A DNA stretch of 49,713 nt from a phage. The notes beneath the pieces are model-generated. The model did no database searches. It was not told the DNA's origin and was given only the letters and a program-made list of their open reading frames with translations. How positions within the stretch are numbered: position 1 is the first letter of the stretch; every line of letters begins with the position of its first letter. A program made the translations under genes and the position numbers. This document shows, piece after piece, positions 29,769 to 38,258 of the stretch. Where the stretch lies: the sequence record NC_130088.1; one strand, written 5' to 3'.

Positions 29769-29808
29769 CACTTTTTGTTAAAACAGGCGCGACGGAATGC
29801 GCCATAAT
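29766..29808 (+). promoter_or_regulatory. Conserved 19-bp box plus CATAAT (class-2 unit)
   Basis: Box starts at the TAG stop of the upstream gene. Confidence 0.5.
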
Positions 29809-29839
29809 GCACACATCAGAACGAAACGGAGAATTAACC

Positions 29840-30118
29840 ATGAAAAAGATGTTATCAGTAGTTGCTTTATCACTTGCCATTGTCGGTTGCATGGATAAAC
29901 CAAAAACATATATTTGCGGAAATGAAGCGTTTGAGGTTACAAGCGAATATATGAAAGTTGTGCAAGGTAAAAGCACAGGCGTTGTAATGGATAATATCAG
30001 CAAAAATCAATATAAGCTGTTTACGCCAATTGGAACGGCTTTTTACACTGTTAACGATAGCACCATTGATATTAAAGTTGGCGTTTATCAGAACACTCTA
30101 ACTTGCGAGGTAAAATAA
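29840..30118 (+). CDS. Small lipoprotein, candidate superinfection-exclusion protein (Cor/Llp-like)
   Basis: 92 aa; signal peptide with lipobox AIVGC; GGAG SD. Confidence 0.5.
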   Translation: MKKMLSVVALSLAIVGCMDKPKTYICGNEAFEVTSEYMKVVQGKSTGVVMDNISKNQYKLFTPIGTAFYTVNDSTIDIKVGVYQNTLTCEVK

Positions 30119-30119
30119 A

Positions 30120-30860
30120 ATGGCTAAGGATTTTCAGGACAAAGCAACCATTGATACTTTTGAGCCGGAAATGGATTTTCATGAACTGCAACACGGCAGA
30201 TATTCAGATATTGCTTTACGTTCAGGCGGTCATTATCAGCCAGTTAGAGAAAACCCATTATTTAAGGTTAGCGGCAACCGTTATGCAGGAAGTAAAACGC
30301 CGGACGTAGTGCGCGACTTGTGGGAAACTCCAGATGAAATTGTTGAATACCTTGCTGAACGTTACGGCAAATATGATCTTGACGCAGCAGCAACGGAAGA
30401 TAATAAAAAATGCGATAAATTTTACAGCAAAGAAACAAACTGCTTAAAGCGTTGGTGGGGTAGCAATAAGCACGTTTGGTTAAATCCACCATACAGCAAT
30501 CCAGATCCATTTATCAAAAAAGCAATTGAGCAGATGGAACACGGAAACCAGATTGATATTTTACTTCCGGCTGATAATTCAACTGCATGGTTTAGTGACG
30601 CACAAAAACACGCGGCAGAAATTATCTGGATTACTGGTGAAACCTGGAAGGATGAAGAAGGTCGCGAATATTCCAGAACTGGTCGAGTAGCGTTTATTTC
30701 TGGCATGACAGGTGAGCCAGTTAGCGGAAACAATAAAGGTAGTGTAATTTTTATCATGCGCCAATTGGAAGAAGGTGAGCAACAGCAAACGCACTATGTG
30801 AAGATTAGCGACATTTGCCCTTCCGTAAAAAATAAACGAGCCAAAGCGCGGAGTATTTAA
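30120..30860 (+). CDS. dam: N6-adenine DNA methyltransferase (phage Dam-type)
   Basis: NPPY motif (LNPPYSN) and overall pattern of phage N6-adenine methyltransferases. Confidence 0.8.
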   Translation: MAKDFQDKATIDTFEPEMDFHELQHGRYSDIALRSGGHYQPVRENPLFKVSGNRYAGSKTPDVVRDLWETPDEIVEYLAERYGKYDLDAAATEDNKKCDKFYSKETNCLKRWWGSNKHVWLNPPYSNPDPFIKKAIEQMEHGNQIDILLPADNSTAWFSDAQKHAAEIIWITGETWKDEEGREYSRTGRVAFISGMTGEPVSGNNKGSVIFIMRQLEEGEQQQTHYVKISDICPSVKNKRAKARSI

Positions 30861-30861
30861 A

Positions 30862-31092
30862 ATGAGCATTCGATTAGCCGATCACATGAAATGGGATTTA
30901 TTTGTCGGTATGACAATTCGCTTACTTGATAAGCATGGTTATAACGATGATAAAATGGAGTTGATAAACTGCCTGGATATGACATTTGACGAAATCAAAG
31001 TTGCGCCTTTGTACATGTGGGAAAGAAAAATTGAGCACGACCTGATACAATACAAACGCAGAGAGGGCGCACGATTTTTCAATGTGAAATAG
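30862..31092 (+). CDS. Hypothetical protein
   Basis: 76 aa, overlapping start/stop with dam. Confidence 0.4.
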   Translation: MSIRLADHMKWDLFVGMTIRLLDKHGYNDDKMELINCLDMTFDEIKVAPLYMWERKIEHDLIQYKRREGARFFNVK

Positions 31093-31142
31093 CACTTTTT
31101 GTTAAAACCCGCTACGGCGGGTTTTGTATTATGTGCTTAACG
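31090..31142 (+). promoter_or_regulatory. Conserved 19-bp box plus hairpin plus TATTAT (class-2 unit)
   Basis: Box begins at the TAG stop; CCCGC..GCGGG hairpin in spacer. Confidence 0.5.
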
Positions 31143-31162
31143 GAAAACAAGAGGATTTAAAA

Positions 31163-31327
31163 AATGAAAATCGTAAACGTCGAATACTTCAAAGATGCGC
31201 AATGGCTGGCTAAAGAATCATTGTTTATGCTTGATCGCAAAAATCCAAAGGTTATTGCACAAATACTTTGGAATGACGCAATGGAGTTACTTAAAAAGGC
31301 TTACGGTTATGAAAGTGAAGAAAGGTA
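31163..31327 (+). CDS. Small hypothetical protein (54 aa, below ORF-track cutoff)
   Basis: ATG with AAGAGGA SD; continuous with neighbouring operon. Confidence 0.35.
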
Positions 31328-31551
31328 AAAAGGAAACTTGGGAGCTTGCTAAAAAAGGCGGTCTTGATGAAGGGATCGCCAAAATAGCAAAGTATTTCGA
31401 TATTAAAGACGTGTGCGTTATTGTTGGTGACGAAATGGCGTATGTTGAAGAAAAGCCGCGACGTGTTCACCGTGTTCCAGCAATACCAACAACAATCGAC
31501 TATAAAGAAGTTATTAACAAAACCAAAGAGCAGAAGAAATATTACAAATGA
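31309..31551 (+). CDS. Hypothetical protein
   Basis: 80 aa from internal ATG (MKVKK...). Confidence 0.35.
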   Translation: MKVKKGKKETWELAKKGGLDEGIAKIAKYFDIKDVCVIVGDEMAYVEEKPRRVHRVPAIPTTIDYKEVINKTKEQKKYYK

Positions 31552-31634
31552 GATACATTTCTGTTATTTTGTTGCCGCCTGTTATCGCTTGGGTTATTAT
31601 GTACGCCGTTGTTATGAATTAAGAGGATGTTAAA

Positions 31635-32750
31635 ATGAGTTTAAAAAAGATTACCGACGAGCAATTGATCGCTGAACGTGAGGCGGGTTTAAAACTGCGT
31701 GAGATTGCGGAAAAATACGGAATGAGCTTGCGCCAGGTTGAGCACCGCCACAGCAAATTAGCAAAGCGTGGCGAGATCTCAACTATCGGATCACCTGGCT
31801 TTGCGGTAATTGGCGAGTCAAAGTTAGTTGATAAAAACGGCAATACTAAACTAACCTGGATTAAGACGCACAAAGATAAAGACCAGTTAGAGGCAATAAT
31901 GCAAGCGGCTATGGCTGCATTTTCTGGCGAGTTGCCACGCCTGGAACCACAGCCGGAAAAGATTGCTGACTATTCGAAAACCCTTGCGCTATATCCGATC
32001 TTTGATATTCATATTGGTGCAATGGCTCATAAGCATGAAAGCGGCGAGAATTACGACACGGCAACGGCAGAAAAGATCATGAATGAATTCTTTGATTATG
32101 CCGTCGATAAAGCACCGAATAGCGAAAAGGCTGTATTGCTGATTGGTGGTGATATGATTCACAGCGACGGCCTGGAGGCTGTAACACCTGCAAGCGGTCA
32201 CGTTTTGGATCAGGATTCGCGATATGCGAAACTTGTTTATGTTGCCATTCGAGCCACGCGCAGAGCAGTAAGCCGAATGCTGGAAAAACATAAAGAGGTT
32301 GAATTGCAGATCATTGAAGGTAATCACGACCAATCAGGAATGATCTGGCTACGTGCTGCAATGGCGGCGGCGTATGAGAATGAGCCACGCGTAAAGGTTG
32401 ATGTTTCTCCGCGTGTCGTGCATCACACTCAATATGGTAAAACTTTCCTGGCTTATCATCATGGTCACACTGTACGCAAGCCAGAAACGCTTTTAATGAT
32501 GTGTGCAGCGGATTGGCGGGAAGATTTCGGAAACTCCAATTCAATGTATGCGCATGTAGGGCATTGGCATCACCAGACTGTTACAGAAACGAGCCTTGGC
32601 ATTGTTGAGGTGCATAGCACTATGGCAGCAAAAGACGCTTACGCCGCGCGTGGTGGCTGGCGTTCACGTCGCAGGGCGGCGGTAATTATTTATGATAAGG
32701 AATATGGCGAAATAGGGCGCTTTATGTTTTACCCTGAAATGATTGCTTAA
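31635..32750 (+). CDS. Metallophosphoesterase (calcineurin-like) with N-terminal HTH-like segment
   Basis: Motifs D-x-H, GGDMIH, GNHD, GHWHH; N-terminal LKLREIAEKYGMSLRQV. Confidence 0.6.
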   Translation: MSLKKITDEQLIAEREAGLKLREIAEKYGMSLRQVEHRHSKLAKRGEISTIGSPGFAVIGESKLVDKNGNTKLTWIKTHKDKDQLEAIMQAAMAAFSGELPRLEPQPEKIADYSKTLALYPIFDIHIGAMAHKHESGENYDTATAEKIMNEFFDYAVDKAPNSEKAVLLIGGDMIHSDGLEAVTPASGHVLDQDSRYAKLVYVAIRATRRAVSRMLEKHKEVELQIIEGNHDQSGMIWLRAAMAAAYENEPRVKVDVSPRVVHHTQYGKTFLAYHHGHTVRKPETLLMMCAADWREDFGNSNSMYAHVGHWHHQTVTETSLGIVEVHSTMAAKDAYAARGGWRSRRRAAVIIYDKEYGEIGRFMFYPEMIA

Positions 32751-32761
32751 TTAAATTATCA

Positions 32762-32792
32762 AGAAAAAGGCTGGCTAAGTGCTGGCCTTTTT
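32762..32792 (+). terminator. Terminator-like hairpin plus T7
   Basis: Imperfect dyad and T-run. Confidence 0.45.
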
Positions 32793-32861
32793 TTGTTTTT
32801 GTGGTTAACATATTCACACTAATTTTGGCATTGACATTTTAATTTAATTGAGGATCAGATT

Positions 32862-33086
32862 ATGAGAGACTTTCTTTTAATGGCGCAAAACTCTTTCGGA
32901 GGTGCAACGGTAGTTGGAACTTTTACTGGTGAGTTTTTGCTTGCACTTGCTACGTTTATTTTGTTCGCTATTTTCGGCTGTTGGGGCGCATGGCTGAAAT
33001 GGCGTGATAGTAAAGCGATCCGAGAGGCTTTAGATTCAGGGGATTTAAAAACGGCGCTTAATCTACGGCAGAAAGAGAGGGTGTAA
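32862..33086 (+). CDS. Putative holin
   Basis: 74 aa, hydrophobic TM segment(s), charged C-terminus, immediately upstream of and overlapping endolysin. Confidence 0.55.
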
Positions 33087-33580
33087 TGACAATCAAGAAA
33101 GGTATAGCCGCCACCGTCACAGGGGCGGCTTTAATGTTGGCATCGCCTTTGATTGAAGAAATTGAAGGCGTAAAGTATAAGCCTTACAAGGATATTGCGG
33201 GGATCTGGACTGTATGCCACGGCATTACAGGAAAGGATGTGATTCTTGGAAAGGAATATACCAGGCGAGAATGTGACGCGCTATTAGCAAAACACATGAA
33301 AGTAGCGGCTGACGCTGTTGATAAGGCTGTTAATGTTGAAATTCCTTTATCAATGCGAGCGGCTCTATACTCATTCACTTTTAATGCTGGTACTGGCGCG
33401 TTTCGTAAGTCAACCATGCTGAAAAAGATCAACAATGGTGATCTATGGGGCGGTTGTGGTGAGCTATGGAACTGGACATACTACCGGAACCCTAAAACTG
33501 GCAAGAAGGAAAAATCAAGAGGATTGAAGAATCGCCGCGCCGTCGAATATAAATATTGTGTAAGGGATCTGAATAAATGA
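33086..33580 (+). CDS. Endolysin (lysozyme-like) with N-terminal signal-anchor-release-type hydrophobic segment
   Basis: Lysozyme-like block [22 protein letters not shown]; N-terminal hydrophobic stretch. Confidence 0.8.
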
Positions 33581-33966
33581 AAAGAAAATTACTGGCTATT
33601 ATGATGTGCATTGCTCTTTCTGGTTGTTCAGCTTCAAGCGTGTTACCTGGTCTGATTGGTAGCAAGCCTGATATAACGGCACAGGCTGGAGCGGAGAATG
33701 TGAAACAGACTGTTGGTGTAACCGCAAAGCAGGATACATCAAGCAAGCAGGAAACCACATTCAAAGAATCGGCAGTTGGTCAAGTTGACACATCCAATAA
33801 AAAGCAGGTTAGCACTTCAAGCATTAAGGCAGATAACATCACAGCGGAAAGAATAGAGATCAGAAATAATGATGGTCTTAATGTTCCGGCAATCGCAATG
33901 GGTATATTGATGTTTATTGCTGGTATGCTGGCAGGTTGGACACTAAAACGTAATAAGGCGGCATAA
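33577..33966 (+). CDS. Unimolecular spanin (N-terminal lipoprotein signal plus C-terminal TM helix)
   Basis: Lipobox LSGC at N-terminus and C-terminal TM segment; overlaps endolysin stop. Confidence 0.7.
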
Positions 33967-33981
33967 GCCGCCTTTTCTTTT
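33955..33981. terminator. Bidirectional terminator (AAGGCGGC..GCCGCCTT)
   Basis: Between convergent lysis cassette and leftward operon. Confidence 0.6.
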
Positions 33982-34204
33982 AAAAAATATTGTTCATTAA
34001 GTCTTGGAAACTATTACCGCTATAATCCTTTTCCTCAATAATGTGAGCACCTTTCTTTTTTATATCCCACAGCATTTTTTCATATTCGCAGCGGTTAATG
34101 CCAAACGCACTACCATCATCAACATATGCGGTTCCTTTGTTGTTGAAAACGTCAAATGTAACATTAACAACGCGAGTGGTTTTGATGGAATATTTTAATG
34201 ACAT
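33980..34204 (-). CDS. Hypothetical protein
   Basis: 74 aa, preceded by class-2 box and SD. Confidence 0.45.
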   Translation of the reverse strand: MSLKYSIKTTRVVNVTFDVFNNKGTAYVDDGSAFGINRCEYEKMLWDIKKKGAHIIEEKDYSGNSFQDLMNNIF

Positions 34205-34237
34205 TTTGAATTTCCTTTTGTTCGTTTCGATGAAACA

Positions 34238-34280
34238 ACTATACCCGATACAAGATCGGGTGTTTTAACAAAAAGTGCTA
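34238..34280 (-). promoter_or_regulatory. Conserved 19-bp box plus TATAGT (class-2 unit, minus strand)
   Basis: Box/gap/-10 read on minus strand; CATCGAAAC leader follows. Confidence 0.5.
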
Positions 34281-34475
34281 TTCGAATTTTCTTACGTGAA
34301 TAAGCAATTCACCATCTTGATTTGTCAGTTGATGCTCTTGATCTTCAAACGCTCTCATATCACTGTAAAGCAACAGCATTAGCGCATAGACAAAATCATC
34401 ATGCTGAATTTGCATTGCTGAACTTTCTTTCAAAATAAGATCTATCAAATGCTGGCTTGCTGAATAATTCTTCAT
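34278..34475 (-). CDS. Hypothetical protein (start uncertain)
   Basis: ORF overlapping the upstream gene end; may start at an internal ATG. Confidence 0.3.
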   Translation of the reverse strand: MKNYSASQHLIDLILKESSAMQIQHDDFVYALMLLLYSDMRAFEDQEHQLTNQDGELLIHVRKFE

Positions 34476-34791
34476 CGCTCATTTTCTCAATGTTCATCAT
34501 TTCTGAAATGTACACATTTTTATCACCTTCCAGGCTATGCAACTCAAAATTGAAAGGGCGTTTAATTTTGTTCTTACACCAGTATTCAAGATTAATGCCG
34601 TCCAAATATCCAAAACCCATAAGGCGAGAAATAAACTCTTTACTCACACTTGATGCGAAATAGCGGGGCGTTACCCCCGCATTTTTGGCGAGCCTTTCAC
34701 ATTCACGGTGACGGAATATAAATCTTGCAAACTCTTGGCGATTGAATTTCTCTCTAGACTCGCAAAAGCGATACAGATCTAATAAGAACAT
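34399..34791 (-). CDS. Hypothetical protein
   Basis: 130 aa. Confidence 0.4.
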   Translation of the reverse strand: MFLLDLYRFCESREKFNRQEFARFIFRHRECERLAKNAGVTPRYFASSVSKEFISRLMGFGYLDGINLEYWCKNKIKRPFNFELHSLEGDKNVYISEMMNIEKMSDEELFSKPAFDRSYFERKFSNANSA

Positions 34792-34793
34792 GA

Positions 34794-36374
34794 TTACCCC
34801 ATTAACGCCGGATTGACATAAACAAATTTACCCACGCTGCAAACATAATTCTTTTCTTCAAGCATTGGCAATAATTGTTCCTCAATTCGTTTCATCACGC
34901 CTGATTGACCTGTAAACGGCTTAACCTTACGCGCACTTTCATAGATAGCTCTTGCATTGGTAACGCCTTTATTTTGACGTGAGATCTTAATGATGATTTC
35001 AATTAACTTGCTCATTTCGGCATCATCGCCAGCGTGACCGGAAGCATTCGCGGCGTTGATATATGTTTTGCTTAATTCGCTGAACATCACCAAAGCCTCT
35101 TGCATTGTCTCAACTTCAATTTCTCGCGACTTTTGCGGCGTACCGTTTGGATTAAACCAATTGCGGATCGTGTGCAATACTGACGCAATGCGGATCACTT
35201 GCTTATCCATTTTACCCAAAGCACCACGCAACATTGTATGTGAATATTTCCCGCCGTCTGCTAAATCTGGCTCTAATTGCTGGCGAGCAATATTAAGAAC
35301 ACGCATTGCAGAACGTGACGGCTTCAATACCACATTTTGTTCAGTCATGATGTTATGAATCAACTGGAAATATTGCGCCTTTAATTCTTTATCAACTGGC
35401 GTGTAATCAAGATCACCATTTTCATCAATAAATACACGCTCTCCTAACATTGTTTTTTCACGTACAAGCAAGAAACGTTCACTAACACCAATACCACGCG
35501 CCCCTGCATCCATTATCCCTTTTATCGTTTCATCCTGGGCAATTACGCTCATGCAGCCCAACGCAACAAAACTCATATTATTTTCAGAGTTGGCGCGAGC
35601 TATTGAAACGTGTCCGGCGTCCCATGCTTTTAGAACCAATTCGCTGTTAGTCTTGCGATCACTGTTAGCGTAAGTCAATCCGAGTAAGCTGTTGATGCTT
35701 GTTGCTTCATCTGAAATGACAGCAAAGTTACCCTGGCGATTGTTGATCTTTGCTAAACCTTCCGGCGTGGTGTCTGATACCGGAAAAACGATATCGCACA
35801 TTTTTTCTAACTTTTCCTCTAATTCCTCCTTTTCCTCAAACAACGCCGCTAACTCAGTGCCGGAACGCTCAGCTTTCAATTCCTTTTCAACGCCTTTTAA
35901 TTTCGCTGCGATCTTCTTTCGCTCTTTCTTGCGTTGTTCGTTGATTCGCTCAACTTCACAGACCATTGGCGCAATAGCCAGGCTGTTGATTGCTGATTTA
36001 CCAGTTGATGGCGGCTGACTGGTTACAACATAAAGAGCCGTTGGTTGTTCAGTGTCGTGGTACTCAACTTGGAAGCGTCCAACCATAGCGGCGGAAACGC
36101 AACCTATGAAATGCATATAGGCCGATGATTCAGGAAATTGAACAGATTGCGCAATGCTACGTGACAGTTTACCCACAACATCAACATCATTACCCAAAGA
36201 GATCACAGGATAACGGTCATTAGCGCCGTTGATATCCTTCACAGGTTCCCAAAAGCTGGACGATTGGCGGTAGCCGTTCGACTGAATAGCAACGCGAAGC
36301 GGCGATGTTCCCTGCGATTCTGCAATGGCTATAACTTGTTGAGGTGTCAATTTGTTGGTGTCAAAGTCAAACAT
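34794..36374 (-). CDS. Large hypothetical protein (526 aa) with P-loop-like PPSTGKS segment
   Basis: AAGGAG SD; first gene after class-2 unit at 36402-36444; function not recognised. Confidence 0.5.
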   Translation of the reverse strand: MFDFDTNKLTPQQVIAIAESQGTSPLRVAIQSNGYRQSSSFWEPVKDINGANDRYPVISLGNDVDVVGKLSRSIAQSVQFPESSAYMHFIGCVSAAMVGRFQVEYHDTEQPTALYVVTSQPPSTGKSAINSLAIAPMVCEVERINEQRKKERKKIAAKLKGVEKELKAERSGTELAALFEEKEELEEKLEKMCDIVFPVSDTTPEGLAKINNRQGNFAVISDEATSINSLLGLTYANSDRKTNSELVLKAWDAGHVSIARANSENNMSFVALGCMSVIAQDETIKGIMDAGARGIGVSERFLLVREKTMLGERVFIDENGDLDYTPVDKELKAQYFQLIHNIMTEQNVVLKPSRSAMRVLNIARQQLEPDLADGGKYSHTMLRGALGKMDKQVIRIASVLHTIRNWFNPNGTPQKSREIEVETMQEALVMFSELSKTYINAANASGHAGDDAEMSKLIEIIIKISRQNKGVTNARAIYESARKVKPFTGQSGVMKRIEEQLLPMLEEKNYVCSVGKFVYVNPALMG

Positions 36375-36401
36375 CTAAAAATCTCCTTCTTGTTGCCGCT
36401 A

Positions 36402-36444
36402 ATTATAACGGCAACATTCTACAGCCTTTTAGCAATTCGTGCTA
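36402..36444 (-). promoter_or_regulatory. Conserved 19-bp box plus TATAAT (class-2 unit, minus strand)
   Basis: Box contains the TAG stop of the upstream gene. Confidence 0.5.
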
Positions 36445-36690
36445 TTTGATCGGCTCAACCCTGGCTAATAACTTTCCGTCTATAATGCTATGACATTCAA
36501 GAGTTTTAGGATCGAATGCAAGCGAACGATGGAACGTATGACCAATCAGCAAATATGAATGCTTATCCCTGATGCGATAGACCGTTTCACCTTCCTTTAA
36601 TGACGATATCGCACTAAAAACAACCTTGTAACGATATTTTTGCATAGCCTCAGAACGGTGAGGAATGTAATCTTTTTCCGGTAAACTCAT
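36442..36690 (-). CDS. Hypothetical protein
   Basis: 82 aa. Confidence 0.4.
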   Translation of the reverse strand: MSLPEKDYIPHRSEAMQKYRYKVVFSAISSLKEGETVYRIRDKHSYLLIGHTFHRSLAFDPKTLECHSIIDGKLLARVEPIK

Positions 36691-37049
36691 GAGTATTTGG
36701 CCTCAAACAGATAAGCACCGCCAGCGGCTGAAAATCCAACTTCTTCCCGATACAGAGTGAAACGGTCGCCGTTTTCGTCGAAAACATATCCAGCAACAGC
36801 ACCTAACACGCGGCCTTGTTCGATCTGGTAACGCTTATCGGCTTTGAAAGTTTTCTTGATCTGCATGGAGTGGTTTACCCGTGTGCATTTAATGGTTTTG
36901 GTCTTAACATTTCGGAATGTTAATCCTGTTAAGTTGGCGTGAATCCATTTCCCATCTAACTTAACGAAAGTATCATCATTTTCGTCTACCCGCGCTTTGT
37001 ATAGGCGGTTATCAGATCCGATAAGTTTGATTGATTTGAATTTAGCCAT
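36687..37049 (-). CDS. Hypothetical protein
   Basis: 120 aa. Confidence 0.4.
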   Translation of the reverse strand: MAKFKSIKLIGSDNRLYKARVDENDDTFVKLDGKWIHANLTGLTFRNVKTKTIKCTRVNHSMQIKKTFKADKRYQIEQGRVLGAVAGYVFDENGDRFTLYREEVGFSAAGGAYLFEAKYS

Positions 37050-37081
37050 TTGATTTATCTCCTTTTGTTTTCGTTGAAATC

Positions 37082-37124
37082 ATTATGCCGGATACGTGAT
37101 CCGGCGTTTTAACAAAAAGTGCTA
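37082..37124 (-). promoter_or_regulatory. Conserved 19-bp box plus hairpin plus CATAAT (class-2 unit, minus strand)
   Basis: GCCGGAT..ATCCGGC hairpin in spacer. Confidence 0.5.
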
Positions 37125-37817
37125 TTTCTGATTTGCCAGGCATACAGCAAGCGCAAAGCCGCGCGGAGTGAGTGAGCGGATCAGCTTTGTTCGCTTAGAC
37201 TTGCCGCCGAGCTTTTGCCAGCCTGGATTGTTGTTCCCTGTTGGCAATACTGCGTTTGTATCCGGCATTACAAAGCCGTTACCCGTCCAAAGACAAGTTT
37301 TTTTGGTGTACGCATCGCGAGCGGGAATGATTTCAGGAAAGTGAGGATGTTTATCATCTTCCGGCAACAGACCTCCAAACGCGCAAGGATGAAAGATAAA
37401 ATCAGGTTGCCGCCACATTGACGACAGAACACTAACAGGATTCTCAATCATATATGGAACGTTAAACCGATCCGCAATATTGGCAGCAATCTTTGCCGTT
37501 TCAACCGCCTTTTTCTGGAAGTCTGGATCACGTTCACGCTTTGCTGCAAAGTGACGCGATCCGCTAACAGCTAAATCAGTGCATGGAGGGAATGCAATAA
37601 TAAAATCTGGAGTGCCAAAGACGCGCATCATTGCGTTATGCTGGAATGATAATCCGATCCACTCATTCAAATAAACGATGTTGGGATGAGTCACGCGCAC
37701 TGATTGGTAATCACCATGATCAGCACCGTCGAAATTAAAGCACAGCACTTTGTGACCACGTTCAGCCCACGGCAACGCAGCATAACCAGAACCATCAAAT
37801 AGTGAGAAAATAAGCAT
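37122..37817 (-). CDS. Putative DNA cytosine-5 methyltransferase-like protein
   Basis: FDGSG (motif I-like), FPPC (PC catalytic motif-like), ENP (ENV-like); start set at internal ATG with AAAGGA SD; unusually short for this family. Confidence 0.4.
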   Translation of the reverse strand: MLIFSLFDGSGYAALPWAERGHKVLCFNFDGADHGDYQSVRVTHPNIVYLNEWIGLSFQHNAMMRVFGTPDFIIAFPPCTDLAVSGSRHFAAKRERDPDFQKKAVETAKIAANIADRFNVPYMIENPVSVLSSMWRQPDFIFHPCAFGGLLPEDDKHPHFPEIIPARDAYTKKTCLWTGNGFVMPDTNAVLPTGNNNPGWQKLGGKSKRTKLIRSLTPRGFALAVCLANQK

Positions 37818-38015
37818 GTTTAAATCCTTTCTGTATGACCTTGTAAGGCGTTTTGTTTGTAGGTGTGACAATCGTATTAGTTACGGCCTGAAATCGCGAC
37901 ATAATGCGAAACAGGCCGCTATTTTTTACTTACAGAATGGGCATGTTGTTTTATCACCGCTTCCGCCGTGTTTTGGACAGCAAATTTTTTCGATAGGTGT
38001 CATTTTAAATACTCC

Positions 38016-38258
38016 TTAGAATGGGAAACAGCGCTTGCAAGATGGATCGAAGTTACAACCGCAATCATTGATTATTGCGTTAGGATCAGCAAGCATCACG
38101 CTACTTTCTTGATCCATATCCATAGCGCCTAATGCGTCATCAAGCGTTATTTCAAGATAGGCAACTTTAAGCGCCCATTCCTTGTTGAGTCCAGCCGCCT
38201 CCGCTTCATGTAGGCGAGCAAAGAAAGCATCTTGAACCATATCAACCCCACTTCTCAA
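38016..38258 (-). CDS. Hypothetical protein
   Basis: 80 aa. Confidence 0.35.
   Translation of the reverse strand: MRSGVDMVQDAFFARLHEAEAAGLNKEWALKVAYLEITLDDALGAMDMDQESSVMLADPNAIINDCGCNFDPSCKRCFPF

Follow-up and report, generated by a model that had tools for sequence, protein, structure and literature searches.

The window analysed here is the whole 49,713-nucleotide phage sequence of record NC_130088.1, and the subject is a pair of methyltransferase genes, gp33 and gp47, encoded on its opposite strands. The window corresponds to Citrobacter phage vB_CfrD_Devorator (Drexlerviridae, Tempevirinae, Tlsvirus), with 100% identity to OL539461.1 over the 8.3-kb region around both genes (window coordinate = OL539461.1 coordinate + 7), and Stevie, U136B, phSE-2 and further members of Tlsvirus match the same region at 94-98% identity. 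The proteins of the E. coli-infecting relatives Tls and U136B are 87-100% identical. Both genes belong to known, already annotated phage methyltransferase families, and the finding is real but ordinary. They likely encode two solitary phage methyltransferases, namely a T1-type Dam acting on GATC and a complete, compact Dcm-like C5 enzyme acting on the inner C of CCWGG.

The two methyltransferase genes

The two methyltransferase-like open reading frames (ORFs) that an earlier note, made from the sequence alone, had placed on opposite strands are both present (Table 1). The gene gp33 is labelled DNA N-6-adenine methyltransferase in OL539461.1, and the Dam-type N6-adenine methyltransferase that the note had recognized by its NPPY signature is borne out by profile searches. 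The protein matches PF05869 (E 2.3e-62, 210.1 bits, cut-off 28.1), the NCBIfam equivalog TIGR01712 'phage N-6-adenine-methyltransferase' (phage_N6A_met; E 1.4e-56, 190.6 bits, cut-off 97.05) and phrog_111 (E 2.5e-90). T1 Dam (YP_003925.1) is 64% identical to gp33 over the full length, differs from it by 9 residues in N-terminal length, and shares both NPPY and the DLDAAA element, which is presumably the equivalent of the S-adenosylmethionine (AdoMet)-binding motif I. The T1 gene also lies at the same genomic place, 3' of an ATP-dependent helicase and a VRR-NUC gene and 5' of a small ORF and a terminator.

T1 Dam has been shown to methylate GATC using DpnI/MboI digestion and a dam deletion: DpnI cuts T1 DNA from a dam- host, and this sensitivity is lost in the dam deletion (PMC10470545). 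T1 Dam and E. coli Dam show no sequence relationship, and loss of dam lowers the T1 burst size to ~60%, also when no restriction system is present and the host is dam+ (PMC10470545). By analogy with T1 Dam, gp33 most likely makes N6-methyladenine (m6A) with AdoMet at GATC.

Table 1. Features of the gp33 and gp47 genes in the window; invariance refers to a 30-sequence alignment of gp47, down to 57% identity
Feature	Position	Strand	Remarks
dam (gp33)	30120..30860	+	246-aa T1-type phage N6-adenine DNA methyltransferase
DLDAAA element of Dam, aa 86-91	30375..30392	+	translation check; identical in T1 Dam
NPPY, motif IV of Dam, aa 122-125	30483..30494	+	translation check; T1 Dam has WLNPPYS
Terminator-like hairpin after gp34	31103..31126	+	10-bp stem, 5 G-C pairs
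Compact Dcm-like C5-cytosine DNA methyltransferase gene (gp47), predicted	37122..37817	-	231 aa from ATG
C-terminal element SLTPRGFALAV, aa 215-225	37143..37175	-	I213-G220 invariant; last helix 219-229 (model)
Motif VIII-like strand KKTCLW, aa 172-177	37287..37304	-	K172, T174, C175, W177 invariant
Motif VI ENP (ENV-type), Glu125, aa 125-127	37437..37445	-	E125, N126, P127, V128 invariant
Motif IV PPC, catalytic Cys79, aa 77-79	37581..37589	-	P78, C79 invariant; T at aa 80
Motif I FDGSG (AdoMet-binding loop), aa 7-11	37785..37799	-	G9, S10, G11 invariant; F7, D8 at least 90%
Ribosome-binding site AAGGA, 7 nt 5' of ATG 37817	37825..37829	-	sequence

In the GenBank record, the gp47 ORF is longer, starts at TTG 37871 (249 aa) and is called 'hypothetical protein'. 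The start at ATG 37817 is the better one because of its AAGGA site and because the equivalent Met is the start in most of 29 aligned homologs. The annotation should be changed from a 'hypothetical protein' with a doubtful TTG start to a Dcm-like C5-cytosine methyltransferase with its start at ATG 37817. Sister phages already label the counterpart of gp47 'putative C-5 cytosine DNA methylase' or 'DNA cytosine methyltransferase'.

Profile searches, which the earlier note had named as a way to place the 231-aa protein, gave a divided answer. A match to phrog_757 'DNA methyltransferase' was obtained (E 1.7e-87, residues 12-248 of the 249-aa form), while Pfam and NCBIfam gave none. Homologs of gp47 are abundant, with 5404 clusters in a large protein database and 1231 at E <= 0.001 in a 50%-identity representative library. 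The gene was found by tblastn in 1533 phage records, nearly all full length, mostly from Escherichia, Klebsiella, Salmonella and other enterobacterial phages with genomes of ~40 to 165 kb. Members of the phrog_757 family are almost all 225-260 aa long, so the 231 aa of gp47, which the earlier note had taken as a possible truncation, is the usual full length of its family. The same Drexlerviridae genes are present in ~39 records named 'Campylobacter phage', and a record of S. agalactiae as host, 'Streptococcus phage MBBL140' (OR786094.1), matches 96% of the 8.3-kb query at 94% identity; these are probably contaminants or mislabelled host assignments.

Anatomy, predicted fold and relatives of gp47

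The kinship with C5-cytosine methyltransferases that the note had read from motifs I, IV and VI is supported by the sequence, in which FDGSG, PPC and ENP follow each other in the order and at the canonical positions of these enzymes. In a profile search, FDGSG was matched to motif I (FDG) of DNMT3B. PPC is indeed followed by T and not Q, as the note had remarked. The segment KKTCLW, which forms a beta strand (174-179) in the predicted model, is presumably the equivalent of motif VIII. The C-terminal element IRSLTPRGFALAV resembles motif IX (RxLTPRE) by sequence and is located where motif X would be. Mean-field covariation in 192 gp47-family sequences (effective number of sequences 125) connects this element with motif I and the core sheet, through the pairs S10-L216 (rank 10), L176-F221 (rank 12) and R20-C226 (rank 29). 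This is weak evidence, and it suggests that IRSLTPRGFALAV may have the structural role of motif X.

An AlphaFold2 model made on the family alignment has a mean predicted local distance difference test score (pLDDT) of 90.5 and a predicted template modelling score (pTM) of 0.89. The model has the class I AdoMet-methyltransferase fold nearest to solved C5-methyltransferases: in a Foldseek search against the PDB, DNMT3A/B came out on top (E 1e-6 to 1e-5, probability 1.00), and the nearest predicted viral structures in BFVD are labelled DNA-cytosine methylases. The link of gp47 to the C5-methyltransferases is remote in sequence and clear in the predicted structure. In BFVD, the compact fold is also seen as one domain of two large proteins of uncultured phages, A0A6J5SE15 (1397 aa) and A0A6J5NPY6 (1126 aa), at 25-28% identity and template modelling scores of 0.63-0.64; one of these is labelled helicase/UvrB-like and the other is uncharacterised.

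In common with M.HhaI, M.HaeIII and E. coli Dcm (PF00145), gp47 has a class I Rossmann core, the motif order I, IV, VI, VIII-like and a C-terminal helix. However, these canonical enzymes are 327-472 aa long (M.HhaI 327), and have PCQ, ENV and RxR where gp47 has PPCT, ENP and KK. In addition, gp47 is without a separate motif IX and hinge, and its target-recognition domain (TRD) has ~40 residues compared to ~80-140. The similarities to DNMT3A and DNMT3B are an FDG-type motif I, LW(T)GN or FWGN after motif VIII, an Arg in motif X and a small TRD, although the identity is 14-18%; the DNMT3 catalytic domain alone is ~285 aa, targets CpG and works as DNMT3L- or homo-oligomers. The resemblance between gp47 and DNMT3 may be a mere effect of the short TRDs in both.

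The most informative relatives are found in phages K42 and KarlJaspers/Bas06. The K42 genome is 95.4% identical to that of KarlJaspers, and all four retron Ec86 escapers of K42 had a disrupted 711-bp dcm gene (Wang et al., bioRxiv 10.1101/2023.08.16.553469). K42 Dcm triggers retron Ec86, is toxic only with the retron present when it is expressed alone, and increases 5-methylcytosine (5mC) on multicopy single-stranded DNA (msDNA), as measured by LC-MS (liquid chromatography coupled to mass spectrometry) (bioRxiv 10.1101/2023.08.16.553469). The mutant C82A/E128A/K175A/K176A neither raises 5mC nor triggers the retron, and mutation of the CCTGG site of the msDNA abolishes defence (bioRxiv 10.1101/2023.08.16.553469). 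The KarlJaspers gene bas06_0055 (711 bp, 236 aa), labelled 'Dcm-like C5 cytosine methyltransferase', lies at the syntenic position; like gp47, it is located 5' of two small genes and a DUF3987 helicase. Its product is 65% identical to gp47 end to end and both belong to phrog_757; in the alignment, C82, E128, K175 and K176 correspond to C79, E125, K172 and K173 of gp47. KarlJaspers is a Hanrivervirus whereas Devorator is a Tlsvirus, and 35% of the residues are different. Some of these are in the 182-200 loop, the best candidate in gp47 for a segment that reads DNA. Another 236-aa protein, P0091, was considered as the K42/KarlJaspers Dcm and rejected, being a Salmonella phage Sasha-type protein.

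Several observations weigh against gp47 being a complete C5 enzyme. The QxRxR of motif VIII is not found; the strand reads YTKKTCLW, with Lys172 and Lys173 in place of the arginines. Separate motifs IX and X after a TRD are replaced by the single C-terminal element, and only a variable region of ~40 residues is available for reading 5 base pairs. No PF00145 match was obtained even at E <= 10, and sequence comparison by itself ties gp47 weakly to the canonical C5 enzymes. A single-sequence search of PDB sequences gave only chance matches (Cdc48, E 0.16), and hhalign of the 30-sequence family against E. coli Dcm gave a non-significant probability of 1% with only the PC region aligned, because the family alignment is too shallow (effective number of sequences, Neff, 2). 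On the other side, 14 of 30 relatives have weak PF00145 matches (best 1.3e-6), and a search with the family profile gave DNMT3B and M.HaeIII at E ~0.1, matched over motifs I-IV. The variable region of gp47 (residues 178-214, ~40-45 residues, compared to ~137 in M.HhaI and ~97 in DNMT3A) seems to be minimal and followed by a fused IX/X element, and this explains why gp47 is so short and why the PF00145 profile misses it.

The note was right that gp47 is too short for a normal TRD, with ~45 residues between the motif VIII-like KK and the C-terminal motif X-like element. It had also suggested that the protein could be truncated, split or non-catalytic, in other words a C5 relic that needs a TRD-supplying partner or that only binds DNA or AdoMet. 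This is very improbable. The ~100 aa by which gp47 falls short of M.HhaI and the missing PF00145 match would suit a relic, but the entire family has the length of gp47, and the catalytic Cys and Glu are invariant in the alignment. Similarly, the ~40 residues between the motif VIII-like and C-terminal elements could indicate a missing part, but the model shows a compact, complete and confidently predicted core in which the C-terminal helix is coupled to motif I. A partner seemed to be suggested by U136B, in which the homolog of the upstream gp48 (38016-38240, 74 aa) is labelled 'putative cytosine DNA methylase', without profile support, and that of gp49 'polyribonucleotide nucleotidyltransferase'. 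A split enzyme involving gp48 was nevertheless rejected, as gp48 belongs to phrog_9323, of unknown function, and has no methylase signal. The 3' neighbour gp46 is kept in one locus without the dcm-like gene (L049) and is therefore not an obligate partner. Together with the activity of the K42 homolog when expressed as a single gene, these results argue against a split enzyme. By analogy with K42 Dcm, gp47 is probably a compact, complete and active enzyme. Locus L002 (9114-9338) belongs with these annotation problems.

CCWGG and other sites in Devorator and the Drexlerviridae

Word counts in the window were compared with a first-order Markov expectation. GATC (287 observed, 161 expected) and CCWGG (114 vs 40) are both frequent, whereas CCSGG (0 vs 34), GGWCC (2 vs 33), CTAG (15 vs 86), CTGCAG (0 vs 10), GGATCC (0 vs 5) and AGCT (104 vs 177) are below expectation. 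With a maximal-order Markov model, the expected counts of GATC (255) and CCWGG (100) are close to those observed, so these two words are better described as 'not avoided' than as 'enriched'. The avoidance of these palindromes looks as if enterobacterial restriction enzymes of SsoII/BcnI and Eco47I/AvaII type had selected against them. The gene pair would account for this word usage of Devorator, in which GATC and CCWGG are tolerated and other enterobacterial restriction sites are purged.

The relation between gene and site was followed in 57 Drexlerviridae loci around the DUF3987 helicase (IMG/VR; 11-22 kb each), in which gene state and word counts were recorded. CCWGG observed/expected ratios are 1.8-3.9 in all 45 loci whose dcm-like gene is intact. 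When the gene is absent or disrupted, the ratio is 0-0.26 in four of eight loci (0-4 sites, 13-18 expected), giving an association between gene state and CCWGG depletion with Fisher p = 2e-4, no phylogenetic correction being made. Among these 53 loci, purging of CCWGG is confined to those in which the gene is absent or broken. The gene is absent from L048 and L049; in L059 a frameshift removes its C-terminal element, and in L061 (HCF1) it has an insertion and an in-frame stop; all four have lost CCWGG almost entirely. These are truly truncated or frameshifted relatives in the case of L059 and L061, and the 114 CCWGG sites of Devorator set it apart from them, which argues further against gp47 being a relic.

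In an unbiased k-mer scan, CCAGG/CCTGG was the most depleted 5-mer relative to the nearest gene-bearing relatives (z -8.2, -8.4, -6.8 and -6.6). The next most depleted 5-mer had z ~-3.5 in three comparisons and -8.1 (CATCA) in the L048/L049 comparison. CCSGG is over-represented in L048 (50 vs 25) and L049 (75 vs 27). CCWGG is likewise depleted in locus L034, in which the gene region lies outside the locus.

An intact, divergent copy of the dcm-like gene (43% identity) is present in PeterMerian (MZ501101.1), which keeps CCWGG (105 vs 49). The whole genome of this phage has 1 GAATTC (20 expected) and 0 GATATC (10.5 expected), and the BASEL study reported a high restriction resistance for it; avoidance of EcoRI/EcoRV sites, and not methylation, would explain this resistance.

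From these patterns and from K42 we infer a CCWGG specificity for gp47 and an anti-restriction role in Devorator. The following points count against both. T1 and L036 keep CCWGG without a dcm-like gene; gene loss thus allows depletion but does not force it. The association is uncorrected for phylogeny and rests on loci of 11-22 kb. The specificity of K42 Dcm was assumed from E. coli Dcm, with the mutation of the msDNA site as the only support and in a dcm+ host (bioRxiv 10.1101/2023.08.16.553469). In the literature, no Tlsvirus methylome and no mapped specificity for the phrog_757 family were found. In the BASEL study, too, the restriction resistance of Drexlerviridae was not related in a simple way to the methyltransferases that they carry.

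It is improbable, though less so than a relic, that gp47 modifies cytosine C5 in another way, either with another specificity or by transferring carboxymethyl from carboxy-S-adenosylmethionine (Cx-SAM), made by host CmoA, as in CmoX. CmoX (PDB 8yf3) is a 333-aa enzyme, compared to 231 aa for gp47, that is co-encoded with CmoA and CmoY, targets GC and uses only Cx-SAM (PMC12783734). It selects Cx-SAM via an Arg in motif X that replaces Asn304 of M.HhaI (PMC12783734), and an invariant Arg219 starts the C-terminal motif X-like helix in the gp47 family. However, an Arg in motif X (GRSWSVPV; positional equivalence inferred) is also present in DNMT3A/B, which are true methyltransferases. Cx-SAM is supplied by E. 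coli, but annotated genes resembling cmoA or cmoY are missing from the part of the Devorator record that was read, which did not extend to a scan of every ORF of the window, and from the syntenic T1 and PeterMerian genomes. The unmapped specificity of K42 Dcm would leave room for another target; against this, K42 Dcm raised 5mC by LC-MS, and CCWGG is the only word with an abundance that follows gene presence. Methylation of CCWGG by gp47 is the preferred reading.

Gene neighbourhood and biological role

No restriction endonuclease is located next to gp33 or gp47; the neighbours are helicases, the VRR-NUC nuclease, lysis genes and small PHROG families of unknown function. Because of this, both are treated as orphan methyltransferases. 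Each is in its own transcription unit. The VRR-NUC nuclease near dam is kept across Drexlerviridae, and the order in which gp47 lies 5' of the DUF3987 helicase in an early leftward operon is the same in Devorator, U136B, KarlJaspers, PeterMerian and the 45 IMG/VR loci. The hairpin after gp34 is probably the end of the transcription unit that holds dam; in T1, a rho-independent terminator is annotated at the syntenic place, after gene 19. Promoter scans around gp33 and gp47 gave no more sites than shuffled sequence.

Two small ORFs were observed beside these genes. Directly 5' of dam, gp32 (29807-30118, + strand, 103 aa) starts with MKKMLSVVALSLAIVGC, a lipoprotein signal with a lipobox. It matches phrog_7420 and, weakly, the Cor superinfection-exclusion family phrog_1119 (E 0.0034), and judged by its sequence it is possibly a lipoprotein for superinfection exclusion. 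An unannotated ORF of 25 codons, MTPIEKICCPKHGGSGDKTTCPFCK (37926-38003, - strand), fills part of the gap between gp48 and gp47 and is preceded by AAGGAG, a strong Shine-Dalgarno sequence (~38010-38015). It is Cys-rich, with a zinc-ribbon-like pattern CC..H....C..C, and is kept with conservative changes (K>R, D>N/T, TT>SS) in L011, L012, L031 and L061, where Dcm is 61-87% identical; it is probably a real micro-gene.

In the proposed mechanism, Cys79 of the PPC motif would attack a flipped-out cytosine at C6, while Glu125 of ENP would protonate N3; this cytosine is most probably the inner one in CCWGG. The methyl group would come from AdoMet, which would be gripped by the FDGSG loop and the C-terminal helix. 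During infection, gp33 and gp47 would methylate the replicating phage DNA at GATC (m6A) and CCWGG (m5C), whatever the dam/dcm status of the host. The methylated sites could then be kept, yet enzymes that cut them when unmethylated would be escaped. The cost would be that 5mC made by the phrog_757 family can be sensed by retron Eco1/Ec86.

The burst defect of the T1 dam deletion makes an additional role in phage DNA metabolism plausible. In a stronger form, the main job of both enzymes would be metabolic, such as marking or timing of replication and packaging or escape from mismatch or very-short-patch repair, with restriction evasion as a side effect. This is unlikely, although it has more in its favour than another cytosine modification, and it is compatible with methylation of GATC and CCWGG by the pair. 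The T1 dam deletion has a reduced burst even when restriction is absent and the host is dam+ (PMC10470545), which agrees with this reading, as does the place of gp33 and gp47 among replication and recombination genes, and the BASEL study did not simply tie methyltransferase genes to restriction resistance in Drexlerviridae. However, the genome keeps GATC and CCWGG but strongly avoids CCSGG, GGWCC, CTAG, CTGCAG and GGATCC, and CCWGG is purged in lineages without an intact gene. Both patterns are predicted by restriction pressure and are not explained by a purely metabolic role.

A tentative and broader proposal is that the phrog_757 family constitutes the smallest class of sequence-specific DNA C5-cytosine methyltransferases (~230 aa), reading CCWGG in a non-canonical way through a DNMT3-like dimer or the catalytic loop, and that presence or loss of the gene decides whether Drexlerviridae lineages keep or purge CCWGG. 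How a ~230-aa enzyme with a variable region of ~40 residues would read a 5-bp site is a structural question of modest scope. For the phages, the relation between gene loss and CCWGG purging exemplifies two options, to methylate a site or to avoid it. If the proposal is true, keeping or purging CCWGG would be a compromise in which EcoRII-type restriction is set against defences that sense 5mC, such as retron Eco1. It is predicted that Devorator is sensitive to retron Eco1/Ec86, which bears on the choice of hosts for phage therapy or typing.

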